From the UHGV virus genome UHGV-0124283: 64,000 nucleotides of DNA. One strand, given 5' to 3'. The translations under genes were made by a program, and so were the position numbers. Positions within the stretch are counted from its first letter, which is position 1. Every line of letters starts with the position of its first letter. This document shows positions 2,828 to 48,246 of the stretch, piece after piece. The notes beneath the pieces are model-generated. The model searched no databases. It saw nothing but the letters and a program-made list of their open reading frames with translations, and was not told the DNA's origin. Origin of the DNA: a virus.

Positions 2828-3240
2828 TGATTGTGCTGGTCGTGTTGTTATCACTGGCGGTGCCGGGGCTGTTTCTGGTGAAGCATGAAAATGCCAGCCT
2901 GCGCACCTCACTGGACAGGGCGAACAGCGTCGCCAGCGGGCAGCAGACGACCATCACCATGCTGAAAAATCAGCTTCATGTTGCACTCACCAGGGCAGAC
3001 AAAAACGAGCTGGCGCAGGTGGCACTGCGTCAGGAACTGGAGAACGCGGCGAAGCGTGAAGCACAGCGCGAGAAAACCATCACGAGGTTACTGAATGAAA
3101 ACGAAGATTTTCGCCGCTGGTATGGTGCTGACCTGCCTGATGCTGTGCGCCGGTTGCACCAGCGCCCCGCCTGCACCGACGCCAGTGATTGTCGCCAACG
3201 CCTGCCCGAAAGTGAGCCTTTGCCCGATGCCGGGCAGTGA
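2815..3240 (+). CDS. lysB: i-spanin-like LysB
   Basis: N-terminal TM helix then coiled-coil periplasmic domain; P2 lysB position. Confidence 0.65.
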   Translation: MSKLMIVLVVLLSLAVPGLFLVKHENASLRTSLDRANSVASGQQTTITMLKNQLHVALTRADKNELAQVALRQELENAAKREAQREKTITRLLNENEDFRRWYGADLPDAVRRLHQRPACTDASDCRQRLPESEPLPDAGQ

Positions 3241-3385
3241 CCCGGAGACGAACGGCGATTTAAGTGCTGATATCCGGCAGCTTGAGAACGCGCTGGCACG
3301 CTGTGCCAGCCAGGTAAAAATGATTAAACACTGTCAGGACGAAAACGATGCTCAAACCCGACAGCCTGCGCAGGGCGCTGACTGA
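3095..3385 (+). CDS. lysC: o-spanin lipoprotein LysC (overlaps lysB out of frame)
   Basis: Signal peptide with lipobox LCAGC, proline-rich mature part; ATG 3095 embedded in lysB. Confidence 0.5.
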   Translation: MKTKIFAAGMVLTCLMLCAGCTSAPPAPTPVIVANACPKVSLCPMPGSDPETNGDLSADIRQLENALARCASQVKMIKHCQDENDAQTRQPAQGAD

Positions 3386-21779: not shown

Positions 21780-22814
21780 TCAAGCCTTAAGAGGCTTTGT
21801 GTATGTTCGTGTAATCCATCCAGTAATAAACTCGTCCCCTGATTTAACCTGCACGAAAAGCCATTGGCGATCTTTTTTATCTAAAACAGCCACTATAGTA
21901 TTTTTGCCAATGCATTCAATCACCTCACTATTTATAGAAGGACTGACGTGTAATCTTACGTTCTCACCAGTTATAAAACGAAAACCATTGAGATCTTCCC
22001 AACTAATTTCTTTGTTTTCTTTAATTAATTGTTGTTTTGATATTGGTTTATCCTCAAACAGAGATATAAAATATGATTCTGCCTTGTGTATTCCCAGCAA
22101 GGTTTTCTCTTTTCCGTAATCAATAAAAGCACCAAACACAACTTGAGAAAATATAACCATTAGTAACCATTGCAGTGGATAAGGAAGCTCTTTAAATGAA
22201 TCAACAAACTTTGAGCTAGGTTTATTTAATCCTTTATTTTGAACATTACTTTTGGTGTGTGATGTTTCAGTAGCACCTTCAGCATAAGCCTGCGCAATAG
22301 ATGAAATCCCCTGCTCTATTATTTGATGTAATGAAGCATTTCTTGTTCTAGCATAGTGATCTAGTACTTTCTTTATGTCTTGGCTTACATCTATTTTATA
22401 ACTTGCACTTTGTTGTAATTCTTTAAGTATCGCTTGCATGTTATTTAAACCAGCTTGCTTATTAAGCACCTCAAGCTGTTTTCGTAATGGCATAGCTATT
22501 TCGGCCTGTTTCCTTAGCATTTGAATATATCTATTTGCATCATGAGGGAAAAGAGCCTGAGTCTGTTTCTGTAAAATCGCGATATGTTCACGATACTTGC
22601 TGCCTATTCCAGCCAAGTTCGGTATACTAGCCAATTGTTTTCGAAGAGAGTTACTAATTACAGCTTGTCTATTCAATCTTGGCATATTTTGAAAAGAATG
22701 TTTTTCTATTCCTAATTGTTTTTGCAAGATCGCTACGTGATCTTTGTATGATGGAATGAGCACTGACTGTTTATACAGCAACTTCAACTCATTAGAATTA
22801 GTAATTTTTGTCAT
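21780..22814 (-). CDS. AT-rich accessory protein: N-terminal helical repeats, one TM helix, C-terminal SH3b-like domain
   Basis: 344 aa; three ~30-aa repeats with ILQKQ / LRKQL cores; hydrophobic LQWLLMVIFSQVVFGAFIDYG; C-terminal ...EFITGWITRTYTKPL; strongly AT-rich codons. Confidence 0.5.
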   Translation of the reverse strand: MTKITNSNELKLLYKQSVLIPSYKDHVAILQKQLGIEKHSFQNMPRLNRQAVISNSLRKQLASIPNLAGIGSKYREHIAILQKQTQALFPHDANRYIQMLRKQAEIAMPLRKQLEVLNKQAGLNNMQAILKELQQSASYKIDVSQDIKKVLDHYARTRNASLHQIIEQGISSIAQAYAEGATETSHTKSNVQNKGLNKPSSKFVDSFKELPYPLQWLLMVIFSQVVFGAFIDYGKEKTLLGIHKAESYFISLFEDKPISKQQLIKENKEISWEDLNGFRFITGENVRLHVSPSINSEVIECIGKNTIVAVLDKKDRQWLFVQVKSGDEFITGWITRTYTKPLKA

Positions 22815-22888
22815 ATTATTCCATTTCTATAATAGAATATTACGCAACCAATGTTTTATTGATTGCGTTAATCTTTAACACAGAAAGA

Positions 22889-23365
22889 TCATTTGCCTCG
22901 TTTAATACATCCATCCATTTTGGCTTGTTGATACAACTTACTTAGCCCAGAAAGAGGGAATGTAGCAATTTTTTCATTATCAACATAAGCATCAATCATA
23001 TTAGCATTTGAATCTGCTGCATCTTGCCAAAAGGCATACCACCAAGAATCTCCAACCATTGATCCAAGATTGCTAAAAGGATATTGATCACCATCTATAG
23101 TTAATACTATTTTATTCTTGTCAGCATTATACTCTTTTTTATTATTCGACGAACTTAGCAACAAGCCTAAACTACCTGCACTATCTGGTGAACCATACAT
23201 GAATCCCATATCACATAAAAAACTTATCTTATCACCATTATGATTATGGATTGTATATTCTCTCCCCCCTCTCTCTTCAATTACATTCCATTGTAGAGGA
23301 TCAATTTTTGCAAATGTTCCTGCTGAAACTAACGATACAAATAATAAAAACCATCTCATATTCAT
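22889..23365 (-). CDS. secreted/periplasmic protein
   Basis: 158 aa; signal peptide MNMRWFLLFVSLVSAGTFA; two Cys; AT-rich. Confidence 0.5.
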   Translation of the reverse strand: MNMRWFLLFVSLVSAGTFAKIDPLQWNVIEERGGREYTIHNHNGDKISFLCDMGFMYGSPDSAGSLGLLLSSSNNKKEYNADKNKIVLTIDGDQYPFSNLGSMVGDSWWYAFWQDAADSNANMIDAYVDNEKIATFPLSGLSKLYQQAKMDGCIKRGK

Positions 23366-23387
23366 TCTTTTCGCTTCTTATCTGTAA

Positions 23388-23738
23388 TTATTCTGCAATA
23401 TCATTTGCCCATTGCACGGCAGCAAAATGAGTACCCAAACCACTCAGGAAAGCAATTACCCCCAAAACAATACTTGCTGCTGTTGATTCAAACAAAGTAC
23501 CAATACTATAGCCAATAGCTCCCCATACTAAGCTAAATACAATCATCAATGGTATTGCTAGAAATTTTATTCTTAAACTAAAAATCAGTCCAAGAAAAGA
23601 ACCGCCAAAGGCCCACCATGATTTAGACATTAAACCTATCAGTATTGACAGAATTCCTATTTCAATAAAGAGAATATTAGATTGCTCTTCATTGAATTTC
23701 GCATTTGTTACACCTTTACGAACATGTTCAGATGACAT
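23388..23738 (-). CDS. small polytopic inner-membrane protein
   Basis: 116 aa with three to four hydrophobic helices; AGGAG RBS 9 nt upstream; first gene of minus-strand operon. Confidence 0.5.
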   Translation of the reverse strand: MSSEHVRKGVTNAKFNEEQSNILFIEIGILSILIGLMSKSWWAFGGSFLGLIFSLRIKFLAIPLMIVFSLVWGAIGYSIGTLFESTAASIVLGVIAFLSGLGTHFAAVQWANDIAE

Positions 23739-23787
23739 GATTAACTATCTCCTGCCACAGATAAAACGCCTTAAAATAACATTTTGT

Positions 23788-23827
23788 AGCATAAAGTTTC
23801 ACCATGCAATGGTCAAAATCTTTGACC
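23788..23827 (-). promoter_or_regulatory. sigma70-like promoter for the AT-rich operon with inverted repeat over the -35
   Basis: Minus strand TTGACC-N17-TATGCT (plus coords 23811-23816 and 23788-23793); inverted repeat GGTCAAA-atc-TTTGACC at 23811-23827. Confidence 0.4.
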
Positions 23828-23884
23828 CATATCAATTAAACTCATACATTTTAGTTACCAGAGAAATAATTTACATGGTTGCAA

Positions 23885-23901
23885 GTTGCTCTAATTATTT
23901 T
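23885..23901 (+). promoter_or_regulatory. C1-operator-like site (immI Op51 position)
   Basis: GTTGCTCTAATTATTTT versus consensus ATTGCTCTAATAAATTT. Confidence 0.45.
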
Positions 23902-24099
23902 ATTTTTTTAGCTTCATATGCTACATTAACTTGCTTGCGTGCTAATGCATTTTCGGTTTATCCTAAACAGGCATCTTAGTAACACGGATGCCGGGATTGG
24001 AACCCCGGATAATGCAAAAGGCGACATAGACGCCAAAAGCGTCTTTTTTTGTGTCATGCCATCGCACAACCATACGTAGCACATAGCTCCGAGATCAAT

Positions 24100-24175
24100 G
24101 GTAGTGCTGGCTGGGCTGCCGAAAGGCAGGCCGGTTCCCTTTTGCGCCGGTAGTTCCAACCCAGTCAGTGCTACC
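24100..24175 (+). ncRNA. c4: structured RNA upstream of icd-ant; candidate c4-type antisense repressor RNA or its precursor
   Basis: 16-bp helix (24100-24115 with 24160-24175) containing three G-U pairs that pair only in the plus-strand transcript; internal hairpin ctgcc-gaaag-gcagg. Confidence 0.35.
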
Positions 24176-24235
24176 GCCATTGAGATTGGAACCTCACGCG
24201 GTAGCTCCTTAAATTAGCAAAAGGAGGCTGCCATT

Positions 24236-24457
24236 GTGGCTACTATCCCTACCCCTACTCATCCTGAATTTATCTGGCGCTTTTACTCCTGCCAAAAACA
24301 CCACTATCACTTCGTTATCGCAGCAACAGAAGACGAAGCACGCTCTCAATTGCCTGATGGCCCCTGCATTTTTACTGCCCGTTTTTCAACTAACTCGCGC
24401 AATTCACTTAGTTACTGGAGCCTCCCCTTCTCTGCCGACGTTCAGGGGGGTTTATGA
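24236..24457 (+). CDS. icd: Icd-like small protein (cell division inhibitor of immI region)
   Basis: 73 aa; GTG start 8 nt after AAGGAGG; stop overlaps ant start. Confidence 0.55.
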   Translation: MATIPTPTHPEFIWRFYSCQKHHYHFVIAATEDEARSQLPDGPCIFTARFSTNSRNSLSYWSLPFSADVQGGL

Positions 24458-25863
24458 AAACACCTCTCGTCACCCGTAATGAAATAGCCGAAGCGATCGC
24501 CTTGCATACTGCCTGTATGCCGACACGGGAGATCCCCGGCGCAATTGCTAACTATTTCATGATAACCAGACGTTTTTATACCCGAACAGATAAGGCTGTG
24601 ATCAACAGGCTACTGATAGCCGAGATCAGGGATTATTTGATTGAACAAGGACGTCTACGTTACGCAACAGTGGCAGCAGAAATGAGAAAGGAGGCACATA
24701 GAATGACCGGTAATAATTTAAATGTTGAAAAAACAGCACCTGTTGCTTCAGCTACGCCATCACCAGCTGTGAATGTTATCTCCAACACTGGAGACACAAT
24801 CGACAGCCAGACACTGTTAAAGATGGTCAATGAAGCGCGTAAGTTATGTGGGGAACCAGAGGTTCGGAACAACAAATTCATCGAAAAAATACTCGACGAA
24901 TTAGAAGGTGAGGACGGTTACACAAAAAGTGCAACCGTGCCGCCAGGTGGCGGTACGCCTATGGTTGTCATAACCATGACCTACAAACAAGCCCTGCGAG
25001 TTGCCGCGCGCGAGTCAAAAGCGGTCCGCCGTTCGCTACATACCATGATTCAGGCATTGGAACCTATAAATGTTGAAAATCATCCTGATGAAATTCCCGT
25101 TCTGGAATGGCAGGGAGTACGCGTCGTGACAACCGAGACTCTTGCTAGAGGGTATGGCACTACACCTACTCGTATTCAGCAGAACTACAATCGCAATGAA
25201 GAACGATTTGTAGAGGGTAAACACTTCTTTAAAATCAAAGGAGATGAGATAAAAAGTTTGCGACTATCTTTTAGCGAGTTGCAAATTTCCCCCAAGACCA
25301 GATCCTTAATACTCTGGACCGAACGCGGAGCGGCACGCATGTCTAAGATCGTAGACACAGAGCAAGCGTGGGCATTCTTTGAAAAACTGGAAGACAGCTA
25401 CTTCCGGCAAAAAGAACAGCAACCGGTCGCAATCCCCCAGACGCTTCCCGAAGCTCTGCGCCTGGCTGCCGAGCTGGCTGAACAAAAGCAGCTACTGGAA
25501 CAGAAAACCCACCAGCTAAATCAACAGCTGGTGGCCGCAGCCCCTAAAGTCGATTTTGCCGACCGGGTATCAGCGGCTAATGGAATCCTGATCGGGAACT
25601 TTGCAAAGGTCGTTGGACTTAAGCAAAACGCCCTTTTCTCATGGTTGCGCCAGAACGGCATTCTCATGGCTTTTGGTGCGCGCAAAAACGTACCGCGCCA
25701 GCAGTACATTAACGCCGGGTATTTCACGGTGAAAGAAGTGGTGCTGGATGATGAAAATGGCTACCAGATACGGCTGACGCCCCAATTAACGGGTAAAGGC
25801 CAGCAGTGGTTAACTCGCAAGCTACTTGATGCTGGTTTGTTAAAACCAGTAGCAATAGGTTAA
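24454..25863 (+). CDS. ant: antirepressor (ORF6N/Bro-N-like and KilA-C domains)
   Basis: 469 aa; C-terminal ...AAPKVDFADRVSAANGILIGNFAKVVGL...LTGKGQQWLTRKLLDAGLL antirepressor signature. Confidence 0.8.
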   Translation: MKTPLVTRNEIAEAIALHTACMPTREIPGAIANYFMITRRFYTRTDKAVINRLLIAEIRDYLIEQGRLRYATVAAEMRKEAHRMTGNNLNVEKTAPVASATPSPAVNVISNTGDTIDSQTLLKMVNEARKLCGEPEVRNNKFIEKILDELEGEDGYTKSATVPPGGGTPMVVITMTYKQALRVAARESKAVRRSLHTMIQALEPINVENHPDEIPVLEWQGVRVVTTETLARGYGTTPTRIQQNYNRNEERFVEGKHFFKIKGDEIKSLRLSFSELQISPKTRSLILWTERGAARMSKIVDTEQAWAFFEKLEDSYFRQKEQQPVAIPQTLPEALRLAAELAEQKQLLEQKTHQLNQQLVAAAPKVDFADRVSAANGILIGNFAKVVGLKQNALFSWLRQNGILMAFGARKNVPRQQYINAGYFTVKEVVLDDENGYQIRLTPQLTGKGQQWLTRKLLDAGLLKPVAIG

Positions 25864-25940: not shown

Positions 25941-25958
25941 ATTTGCTCTAATAAATTT
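25941..25958 (+). promoter_or_regulatory. C1 operator upstream of kilA-repL (Op53 position)
   Basis: ATTTGCTCTAATAAATTT. Confidence 0.6.
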
Positions 25959-27999: not shown

Positions 28000-28181
28000 T
28001 ACAATCGTTGCGGGTGCTTGAGGCTATCTGCTTCAGGCATTACCCGAAAAGCAGATAGAAGAAAGCCCCAGATAACATTACGCGTCCTGCAAGACGCTTA
28101 ACATTAATCTGAGGCCATATCTATGCTTAGCATACGTAGATTAACCCTCTCCCCTTTTAAGGAGCAAGGAATTTTTTACTG

Positions 28182-28778
28182 CTATGCCGCATTTCCAATT
28201 ATGGATTCAGCGACCAGAACAACCCCATGCTTACTTCGATCTGGGTGTTCACTCCATATCTCGGATTCAGGAATACTTACCCCGTCATAGCAAACACGTT
28301 CGCCGTCAAACGGGTAATACTGAGCGGCATCGGTGTCAAGGATAAACACTTTTAGCTCGGAAGAGCGACGGGCGATGTGTTGCCAAAGAGCTTTTCCACC
28401 TTCGTATTGCTCATTATCACTGAGCAAAACAACACCAGCTTTTGAGGCTACGGTTTCGTAAACAAAAGTAGCTAAACCGACATCCCGGACGGTTCCATCA
28501 ACCACGATACCTTCAATCTGGGCAACATCGCTATCCTCCCAGAACTTCCTTACCAGTACGCCTTCAAGCTGCGGGCGACGTTGAAGTTCAAGAGTAGCGA
28601 CAACCTTATGGCGCATATCACCATCGATAACAGAAGGCGCAGCCTCTATTACAGCTGCAAATGGGGTTTTGGAATCCCATATAACCTGGTAAAGCACACC
28701 CTGGATGGTAACTCCGTCCAGGATCGAAAATCGACGAGCGACAGTACCCGGGGAGTACGACATTGGAATCACAGCCAT
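28182..28778 (-). CDS. hypothetical phage protein
   Basis: Start set at ATG 28778 (MAVIPMSYSPG...) with AAGGGGGA RBS. Confidence 0.4.
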   Translation of the reverse strand: MAVIPMSYSPGTVARRFSILDGVTIQGVLYQVIWDSKTPFAAVIEAAPSVIDGDMRHKVVATLELQRRPQLEGVLVRKFWEDSDVAQIEGIVVDGTVRDVGLATFVYETVASKAGVVLLSDNEQYEGGKALWQHIARRSSELKVFILDTDAAQYYPFDGERVCYDGVSIPESEIWSEHPDRSKHGVVLVAESIIGNAA

Positions 28779-41394: not shown

Positions 41395-41411
41395 ATTGCT
41401 CTAATAAATAT
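41395..41411 (+). promoter_or_regulatory. C1 operator upstream of hrdC operon
   Basis: ATTGCTCTAATAAATAT. Confidence 0.6.
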
Positions 41412-45600: not shown

Positions 45601-45703
45601 TGACAGTGGCTTCAGAGTGGAACCTCTTTTTGCCAGACGTTCTGTGTCTTGTAAGGGGGACACTCGAGGTGTAGCTCATGACGTTTTGGGTATATTGCTC
45701 TAA
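42662..45703 (+). CDS. dmt: bifunctional DNA methyltransferase (N-terminal C5-cytosine, C-terminal Dam-like N6-adenine) interrupted by an intein
   Basis: GTG start overlapping hrdC stop; C5 motifs GGTP-[intein]-[22 protein letters not shown]; Dam-like C-terminus with DPPY. Confidence 0.8.
42893..43915 (+). mobile_element. intein (341 aa) with LAGLIDADG homing-endonuclease domain at the PCQ catalytic motif
   Basis: N-terminal Cys ([13 protein letters not shown]), TxxH block (TNDHPF), two LAGLIDADG motifs ([21 protein letters not shown]), C-terminal ...[21 protein letters not shown] then Cys+1; removal restores [12 protein letters not shown]. Confidence 0.75.
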
Positions 45704-45710
45704 TAAATTT
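45694..45710 (+). promoter_or_regulatory. C1 operator overlapping dmt stop codon
   Basis: ATTGCTCTAATAAATTT, exact consensus. Confidence 0.6.
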
Positions 45711-45883
45711 ATTAGTGTAATATCGCCTCGATGAATCGTGATTTATAGAGCGATTTAGCTGTTAGCCGCGACAGGCGCGGCGGTAAGCATGGCTGGGCCT
45801 AGTCCTCCCAGACAAACCACCGAGTTGCCAGGTTGACCATGCGCCTAAGTGGCAACGCCGAAGTGCGTTACGAGCTTCCAGTT

Positions 45884-46375: not shown

Positions 46376-46451
46376 GATGGTGTAGCTCAGCGGTTAGAGC
46401 GGTTGACTGTTAATCAACGGGTCGATGGTTCAAATCCATTCACCATCGCCA
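46376..46451 (+). tRNA. tRNA-Asn (anticodon GTT)
   Basis: Hand-folded cloverleaf: acceptor gatggtg/caccatc, D arm gctc..gagc, anticodon stem gttga/tcaac with loop CTGTTAA, T loop TTCAAAT, CCA encoded. Confidence 0.85.
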
Positions 46452-46453
46452 AT

Positions 46454-46529
46454 GCCGGTTTAGCTCAGTTGGTAGAGCGCCTGCCTTGTAAGCAGGATGT
46501 CAGCGGTTCGAGTCCGTTAATCGGCACCA
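46454..46529 (+). tRNA. tRNA-Thr (anticodon TGT)
   Basis: Hand-folded: acceptor gccggtt/aatcggc, anticodon stem cctgc/gcagg with loop CTTGTAA, T loop TTCGAGT, CCA encoded. Confidence 0.85.
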
Positions 46530-48170: not shown

Positions 48171-48246
48171 GGCCCCTTAGCTCAGTGGTTAGAGCTGGCG
48201 ACTCATAATCGCACGGTCACCGGTTCAAGTCCGGTAGGGGCCACCA
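48171..48246 (+). tRNA. tRNA with CAT anticodon (Met or lysidine-type Ile)
   Basis: Hand-folded: acceptor ggcccct/aggggcc, D arm gctc..gagc, anticodon loop CTCATAA, T loop TTCAAGT, CCA encoded. Confidence 0.8.

Follow-up and report, generated by a model that had tools for sequence, protein, structure and literature searches.

The locus described here is part of a stretch of viral DNA of 64,000 nucleotides, the whole of which was analysed and is called the window below. Positions 23400-24700 are 100% identical to E. coli plasmids of ~97 kb, e.g. NZ_AP022163.1, and the window therefore comes from a P1-like phage-plasmid. The locus has the order C1 operator, promoter, a1b1, c4, icd, ant, kilA and repL, which is the P1 immI layout. 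The c4 element lies on the same strand as the antirepressor operon and directly upstream of it. The start codon of ant overlaps the stop codon of icd as ATGA, and the two genes are therefore translationally coupled. The RNA and the two genes are:

24100-24178, plus strand: predicted mature c4 RNA of 79 nt, with ends placed by homology to the annotated 77-nt c4 of P1
24236-24457, plus strand: icd, 73 aa with a GTG start, predicted to be the first gene repressed by c4; matches NCBIfam phage_ICD_like with 52.8 bits
24454-25863, plus strand: ant, a 469-aa antirepressor with ORF6N and KilAC/ANT domains

A preliminary description of this DNA, made from the letters alone, had proposed a 16-bp helix with three G-U pairs upstream of icd, and had claimed that the helix would be stable only in the plus-strand transcript. 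Fold, covariation and pairing agree on its two strands:

24100-24115, plus strand: 5' strand of the closing helix
24160-24175, plus strand: 3' strand of the closing helix

Base-by-base pairing of 24100-24115 with 24175-24160 on the plus strand yields exactly this helix, composed of 13 Watson-Crick and 3 G-U pairs. The G-U pairs are U24105-G24170, G24106-U24169 and G24110-U24165, and all three positions become C-A or A-C mismatches on the minus strand. The MFE fold of 24094-24181 has precisely the 16-bp helix as its closing stem, with two hairpins inside. Compared with 200 dinucleotide shuffles per strand, the plus-strand fold is far more stable than expected (-46.4 kcal/mol versus -28.8 +/- 3.2 in shuffles; z -5.46; 0 of 200 as low), whereas the reverse complement of the same segment reaches -32.0 kcal/mol, a value that 22 of the 200 shuffles also reach (z -1.38). 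Because the fold is strong on the plus strand and shuffle-like on the minus strand, the c4 structure is non-random and strand-specific, as had been claimed.

An ungapped alignment of 27 homologs was used to study covariation. Here, the closing helix extends by one pair to 17 bp, and 99.8% of its cells are paired, with G-U pairs making up 15% of them. Nine of the 17 pairs change on both sides, as do all five pairs of hairpin 1, while the invariance of hairpin 2 in this alignment is an effect of the search pattern, which fixed that hairpin. Taking all helices, standard pairs are present in 99.9% of pair cells, and 14 of the 27 pairs change on both sides. When the 3' partners were slid by 1-3 columns as a control, just 28-50% of cells could pair. 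This alignment replaced an earlier MAFFT alignment of all pattern hits, which was distorted by length variants and by six chance matches to the pattern (L023, L032, L047, L052, L062 and L106) that are not C4.

A long inverted repeat does exist in the DNA, and it could conceivably be a palindrome that acts at the DNA level as a protein-binding or recombination site. However, the three G-U pairs among the 16 turn into C-A mismatches on the other strand, and the minus strand folds no better than shuffles. Moreover, the family-wide 15% of G-U in the closing helix, and the changes among G-C, G-U and A-U, fit pairing in RNA. We consider the DNA-level explanation extremely improbable, and the compensatory changes uphold the earlier suggestion that selection acts on an RNA structure rather than on a DNA palindrome.

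The whole 64-kb window was scanned against Rfam 15 at gathering thresholds. The C4 model (RF01695) aligns at 24094-24181 on the plus strand over its full length (positions 1-87 of 87) and scores 76.7 bits, where 45 is the gathering score (E 3e-13). The annotated c4 RNAs of P1 and P7 reach 68.8 and 69.6 bits with the same model, both below the element in the window. Our own covariance model, built from the 27 homologs, gives 93.8 bits at c4, and this is its sole match within the 64-kb window. A tRNA identity was also tried and rejected, as the Rfam tRNA model matches only at 46376-46448, 46454-46526 and 48171-48243. The likeness of c4 to a tRNA is confined to its acceptor-like stem and CCA tail.

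The RNA contains two short segments, a' and b', that have complements on both sides of c4:

23997-24003, plus strand: a1, UUGGAAC, in the loop of the second hairpin of the leader element
24014-24021, plus strand: b1, GCAAAAGG, the upstream complement of b'
24138-24145, plus strand: b', CCUUUUGC, in the 12-nt loop of hairpin 2
24153-24159, plus strand: a', GUUCCAA, within the unpaired stretch that joins hairpin 2 to the closing helix
24186-24192, plus strand: a2, UUGGAAC, in the loop of a small hairpin immediately downstream of c4
24217-24224, plus strand: b2, GCAAAAGG, a target site overlapping the icd Shine-Dalgarno sequence

The 7-nt a' is exactly complementary to both a1 and a2, and the 8-nt b' is exactly complementary to both b1 and b2. 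Both segments appear to be accessible: every base of a' has a predicted unpaired probability of at least 0.99, and seven of the eight bases of b' have one of 0.8-1.0. The fold prediction places a1 and a2 in hairpin loops. Duplex energies were calculated from the unpaired segments alone, given that RNAduplex of full-length c4 against the whole flanks unfolded both molecules; they amount to -8.5 kcal/mol each for a'/a1 and a'/a2, -13.1 for b'/b1 and -12.4 for b'/b2. An a-type and a b-type site occur together at only two places in the 64-kb window, and these two places flank c4. The icd Shine-Dalgarno sequence, AAGGAGG, is at 24221-24227, 8 nt ahead of the GTG, and is overlapped by b2. The a1, b1, a2 and b2 sites of the window match one-to-one the features of those names in the GenBank record of P1, which assigns a2 and b2 to the "repression of icd ant translation".

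The preliminary description had suggested a c4-type regulatory RNA, and had named the Rfam C4 model and complementarity to the icd/ant leader as ways to check it; the end-to-end RF01695 match and the exact pairing of a' with a2 and of b' with b2 answer both in its favour. With high confidence, we regard 24100-24178 on the plus strand as a c4-type antisense RNA, the immI secondary repressor of a P1-like plasmid prophage, in a D6-type module and including its mechanism. Very probably, this RNA keeps the anti-repressor genes of the prophage off. Its processing and repressive action are attributed to it because of its homology with P1 and P7, while the sequence anatomy was computed here. In P1, synthesis of Ant is repressed by c4 RNA (PMC8546580; PMC8198154).

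To see the specificity segments across the family, we searched viral contigs with a pattern for the C4 core and obtained 120 loci, of which 90 are unique and usable. The cognate sites a1, b1, a2 and b2 all occur at fixed offsets. A cognate 7-nt a2 is found downstream in 84 of the 90 loci, versus 0.3% of non-cognate pairings, and a cognate a1 is found upstream in 76 (3.5% for non-cognate pairings), where these and the following counts are of sequences and not of independent events. Matches of at least 8 nt to b2 are present in 78 of the 90 loci and to b1 in 63, with non-cognate rates of 1.5% and 1.2%, respectively. The 90 viral loci contain ~45 different a'/b' combinations. Judged by sequence, the co-variation of the RNA with its sites is unambiguous, because many distinct alleles exhibit it. 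For the majority of homologs, the last bases of the cognate b2 are the GGA of a motif that resembles a ribosome-binding site and is located at a fixed offset before the downstream start codon.

Upstream of c4, we found the following features:

23885-23901, plus strand: C1-repressor operator-like site GTTGCTCTAATTATTTT, at the position of P1 Op51/Oc4
23935-23964, plus strand: predicted sigma-70 promoter with a -35 box TTGCGT (23935-23940), an 18-nt spacer and a -10 box TATCCT (23959-23964), equivalent to P1 P51b/P1c4
23971-24049, plus strand: isrK-like leader element with two hairpins, a single-stranded linker and a terminator hairpin, the counterpart of P1 c4-a1b1
24028-24050, plus strand: intrinsic-terminator-like hairpin AGACGC/GCGUCU with a U-run, from a terminator scan

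The operator-like site has 3 mismatches to the P1 operator consensus, and its P1 counterpart is annotated as Oc4. The window contains 9 C1-operator-like sites, versus 0.34 expected by chance. The helix was said to lie between a C1-operator-like site and the start of icd, and it does so, the limits being 23885-23901 and the GTG at 24236. The promoter at 23935-23964 and the transcription start are predictions: TTGCG and TATnnT stay unchanged in the window, D6, the second module of RCS47 and two further loci (L011 and L022), with diverging surroundings, and the predicted -10 box aligns with that of P1c4. The module begins further upstream than the preliminary description had it, its first part being a terminator-ended isrK-like element with a1 and b1.

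This leader element matches Rfam isrK (RF01394) at 23971-24049 with 55.1 bits against a gathering score of 50, while c4-a1b1 (RF03163) stays below threshold in the Rfam scan of the window. The homologous region of D6 likewise matches isrK. By contrast, P1 and P7 match c4-a1b1 at the homologous position, a family in the same clan as C4. The TTTTTGTGTC of the terminator is kept in the window, D6, P1 and P7. A short IsrK-like RNA should end at the 24028-24050 terminator, and transcription that continues past it would make the c4-icd-ant transcript. The position of this terminator between a1b1 and c4 could be a limit on c4 synthesis. The RNA from 23971-24050 carries a1 and b1, and may be a decoy for c4. 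Among 13 diverse phage loci, 13 of the 15 C4 hits have isrK directly upstream. Some phage loci contain two tandem isrK-C4 modules.

The same DNA has also been read as a gene. A RefSeq CDS for an "ash family protein" of 39 aa (24098-24217, plus strand) is placed exactly on the element, and if this small protein is what is conserved, the helix would be incidental. The ORF scores 33 bits with the Pfam family Phage_ASH (PF10554), whose cut-off is 26, and the ash frame has no stop inside c4 in any of the 27 homologs. Over 150 nt upstream, the ash frame is free of stops in 58 of 72 loci, compared with 17 and 5 for the other two frames. In many lambdoid relatives, the ash frame is unexpectedly open far upstream and runs in frame into the downstream gene, and the equivalent ORF of the Salmonella prophage Gifsy-1, orf45, is reported to be translated and required for coupling to anrP.

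However, the variable columns are distributed evenly over the three codon positions (19/29, 18/28 and 17/28) with no third-position bias, and the substitutions are compensatory across the helix and make use of G-U pairs, unlike those of a protein gene. There is no Shine-Dalgarno sequence ahead of the ATG at 24098, and in the window a stop closes the ash frame 6 codons upstream, and the frame does not reach icd. The c4 of P1, an annotated RNA gene, has an in-frame stop inside it. Positions 1-95 of Phage_ASH align to the translated a1 hairpin, the terminator with its U-run (as 'VFFCV'), c4 and a2. In addition, a review of the Gifsy-1 work describes the nucleotide sequence of orf45 as conserved and its amino-acid sequence as variable. 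In the Pfam search, neither the c4-frame ORF of P7 (31 aa) nor the upstream-frame peptide of the window gave a match, which confines the Phage_ASH match to the lambdoid and D6-type groups. We judge it very unlikely that a small protein gene accounts for the conserved stretch, although a translated role for the ash frame is conceivable in some lineages. A new, if modest, point is to recognise isrK elements and "Ash" proteins as parts or artefacts of one RNA module.

The ends of the c4 RNA carry conserved signals. None of the 27 homologs departs from A(-2), U(-1) and G(+1) at the 5' end, and 21 of them carry an RCCA tail at the 3' end, which in the window reads GCCA. P1 c4 is said, in work by Citron and Schuster from 1990 and 1992, Biere et al. 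from 1992 and Hartmann et al. from 1995, to be a stable RNA of ~77 nt that is processed by RNase P. If the homology with P1 and P7 extends to function, c4 and the icd-ant message would share the transcripts that read through the terminator. RNase P would then cut between U(-1) and G(+1), and trimming of the 3' end near GCCA would leave a stable RNA of ~79 nt. On the same homology, the a' of c4 would pair with a2 and its b' with b2, and translation of icd would be blocked. In this scheme icd would not be translated because b2 covers its ribosome-binding site, nor would ant, because it starts inside the icd stop (ATGA). For RNase P processing and for termination after translational repression, this scheme follows background knowledge and the P1 GenBank annotation. 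The untranslated icd-ant message would probably be terminated early. With no Ant made, the C1 repressor would stay active and lysogeny would be maintained.

The c4/CI-type RNA could instead act mainly as in the satellite phage P4, through premature termination or control of read-through at the isrK terminator, and not through a block of icd translation. The succession of upstream site, RNA and downstream site is that of P4 seqA-CI-seqC, and an intrinsic terminator lies between a1b1 and c4. The authors of the Gifsy-1 study draw the P4 parallel for IsrK and STnc1160 (PMC4825925). In P4, CI is a small RNA processed out of the leader of the operon that it controls, with complementary sites on either side (PMC4825925); it is described as acting through premature transcription termination, and it is compared with the element in the window by layout. 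A translational block, by contrast, is what is predicted from b2 on the icd Shine-Dalgarno sequence and from the RBS-like GGA at a fixed offset in most homologs, and the P1 record assigns a2 and b2 to repression of translation. Mainly P4-like action is unlikely in our view. P4-like termination is possible alongside the translational block, as the two modes are not mutually exclusive, but it is not favoured because b2 sits on the ribosome-binding site.

Beyond the block of icd translation, the upstream sites may add a further layer of control. Whether in a terminated short RNA or in cis, a1 and b1 would bind c4 no less strongly than the targets, and these copies would probably set the amount of free c4. 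Tentatively, we propose a circuit of three RNAs with a two-part address code, in which a' and b' reassort independently of each other and the IsrK-like RNA is a decoy that removes c4 and so derepresses icd-ant; this proposal is somewhat less likely to be right than wrong. If the circuit is real, "activator" sRNAs of the IsrK type would in general be anti-antisense sponges of c4-type RNAs. Likewise, the combination of GUUCCAA and CCUUUUGC would be an immI specificity of its own, heteroimmune to P1, P7 and perhaps D6, and the "Ash family protein" of Pfam and RefSeq would largely be a conceptual translation of an RNA leader.

The isrK locus of Gifsy-1 resembles the module in several ways. It too produces a terminated short RNA, its read-through leads to a processed RNA of ~80 nt followed by an antirepressor gene, and the short and processed RNAs share complementary sequences. 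Specifically, the terminated IsrK, a read-through isoform, the ~80-nt STnc1160 processed within "orf45" and the complementarity of IsrK with STnc1160 have all been described, and the authors liken the arrangement of isrK to P4 seqA/CI (PMC4825925). Only in Gifsy-1 is IsrK known to accumulate as a short RNA that binds Hfq and works in trans (PMC4825925), and in the published model IsrK activates the mRNA directly. The operons also differ. The one in Gifsy-1 is reported as isrK-orf45-anrP, in which no icd is described, and orf45, which overlaps the processed RNA, is the reported translated partner of anrP, whereas the ORF in the window stops before icd.

The c4 of the window shares with those of P1 and P7 the three-helix fold and the place between a C1-controlled promoter region and icd-ant1/2-kilA-repL. 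Also shared are the a1/b1 sites upstream, the a2/b2 sites downstream with b2 at the icd ribosome-binding site, the coupling of icd and ant, and 5' and 3' end signals that resemble an RNase P substrate. Apart from the isrK-type leader, there are some differences. Hairpin 1 is 2 nt longer in the window, with a predicted length of 79 nt versus 77 for the RNA, and the 3' tail is GCCA rather than the ACCU of P1 and P7. Upstream of the module, the window has genes other than the sim genes.

Megablast similarity to P1 and P7 starts only at ~24263, inside icd. Instead, the stretch from ~23970 to 24384 matches phage D6, at 87.5% by megablast. Over positions 23960-24260 of the window, identity is 93% to D6, 93% to the second module of JL22 and 90% to that of RCS47, both of which are P1-like phages. 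In RCS47 and JL22, this immI-like module is a second copy between pacB and c1, whereas the module in the window occupies the canonical immI position. Going by these alignments, the immI region of the window is a mosaic, in which a promoter-proximal RNA cassette of D6 type is recombined inside icd onto a P1-like 3' part of icd and ant. The mosaic with its D6-type cassette explains why the preliminary description could not match the sequence to P1 c4, and the alternative it offered, a divergent immI RNA, agrees with the match to D6.

In the plasmid prophage D6, the c4 homolog is unannotated. Its b', b2 and promoter motifs are identical to those of the window, while its a' is GUCUCAA as opposed to GUUCCAA, a difference of two bases that is compensated in both a1 and a2. 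The two a' sequences combine with two b' loops (..UUUUGCG and ..UUUGACG) in all four possible ways, represented by the window, D6, the second RCS47 module and a further viral locus (L022), and each of the four combinations carries matching a1/a2 and b1/b2 sites. Against the targets of D6, the c4 of the window matches at 5 of 7 a positions and 8 of 8 b positions. Against those of P1 and P7, whose specificity sequences are unrelated, it reaches 4 of 7 and 4 of 8 at best, and it is therefore near-certain, as far as can be predicted from complementarity, that its immI specificity is distinct from both. The two-base compensated difference in a' suggests that the specificity may also be separate from that of D6.

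The C4 family, its mechanism and its genomic niche are already known, and the exact sequence studied here is already public. The novelty is modest: a P1-like phage-plasmid has, in the canonical immI position, a D6-type allele that was unannotated and whose specificity is predicted to be new. The allele and its close variants ride on P1-like phage-plasmids, often with resistance genes, and are labelled as a protein; the RNA behind the label probably governs prophage induction and superinfection immunity. The co-varying pairs of a and b addresses should make immI cross-immunity between phage-plasmids predictable from sequence. In addition, the constant isrK-C4 tandem joins the literature on P1 c4 with that on Salmonella IsrK and suggests a decoy mechanism. 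Among E. coli P1-like plasmids the allele is common, and RefSeq labels it "ash family protein" there. We found c4 with its leader in 303 of 5,426 complete E. coli genomes, with ~101 records at an identity of at least 99%.

Where the window has its c4 RNA gene, RefSeq/PGAP places a CDS of 39 aa named "ash family protein" (24098-24217, + strand; WP_001396852.1). The c4 gene of locus L004 (4199-4318) is likewise under this CDS label, and no ncRNA is entered in the RefSeq/PGAP annotation at either position. Among the matches listed, nearly all E. coli records with a feature under the match carry the same label. In lambdoid loci, positions 1-95 of the Phage_ASH profile (PF10554) correspond to the conceptual translation of a1b1 (the upstream sites complementary to the unpaired a' and b' segments of c4), the terminator, c4 itself and the downstream site a2, with a best score of 73.5 bits. 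Given that the profile aligns to translated parts of the RNA leader, the Phage_ASH family looks to be largely translated RNA.

We surveyed reading frames from -150 to +141 relative to the 5′ end of c4 in viral contigs L006-L125. An AUG at the 5′ edge of c4 is invariant in this survey. Of 72 loci, 58 have no stop in its frame over the preceding 150 nt; the two remaining frames are stop-free in 17 and 5 loci. The stop-free frame spans the intrinsic terminator and, in many loci, runs on in frame into an icd-like or ant-like gene downstream. Stops are present in this frame in the window, D6 and P1. Inheritance and RNA-level constraint may together explain the stop-free frame.

Another reading frame overlaps the RNA genes on the opposite strand:
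23926-24180 in the window, minus strand: 84-aa ORF overlapping isrK and c4
2412-2711 in L002 (the D6 locus), minus strand: hypothetical protein orf84, the annotated equivalent of the window ORF
Pfam gives no match for the window ORF, which is probably a spurious call on top of RNA genes.

The isrK (RF01394) match lies immediately 5′ of c4 (23971-24049, + strand). P1 and P7 have a c4-a1b1 (RF03163) match at this position. It appears that isrK and c4-a1b1 are two Rfam models of one a1/b1 leader element. Among diverse phage loci, isrK is found upstream of 13 of 15 C4 matches.

Some phage contigs have two tandem c4 modules with differing a'/b' alleles, and two P1-like phages carry a second isrK-c4-ant module of the D6 type:
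L007, 6535-6723 and 7191-7379: tandem modules, each c4 with its own upstream isrK match
L014, 4574-4762 and 5233-5421: tandem modules, each c4 with its own upstream isrK match
L024, 9708-9796 and 11020-11108: tandem c4, seen as two C4 core matches (the Rfam scan covered L007 and L014)
RCS47 (L005), 3001-3301: second, D6-type module
JL22, 96397-96697: second, D6-type module
The tandem arrangement suggests stacked antirepressor switches. In RCS47 and JL22, which also have the canonical P1-type immI, the D6-type module is located between pacB and c1 and has its own C1-operator-like site, TTTGCTCTAATAAATTG.

Eight further C1-operator-like sites, with 0-3 mismatches to the P1 consensus, occur in the window (25942-25958, 41395-41411, 45694-45721, 55760-55776, 59384-59449 and 61525-61541). 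One precedes kilA, which is the position of Op53, and those at 45694-45721 form an overlapping, divergent pair. On the basis of these sites, the window carries a P1-type C1 regulon.

The window also contains the following features:
28012-28186, plus strand: match to the sok antitoxin (Rfam sok, 94.7 bits versus a gathering score of 59), shortly 3′ of repL
46376-46448, 46454-46526 and 48171-48243, plus strand: three tRNA genes (Rfam tRNA, 66-73 bits)
21780-23738, minus strand: genes preceding the c4 module, which encode one protein with an SH3 domain and two hypothetical proteins of membrane or secreted type
The strong sok match implies a hok/sok-type toxin-antitoxin locus downstream of repL; such a locus is absent from the portion of the P1 record examined. 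The genes 5′ of the c4 module differ from both simABC of P1 and the P7 genes at that position, in line with the literature, which describes immI as a hot-spot of recombination among P1-like plasmids (PMC6906374).
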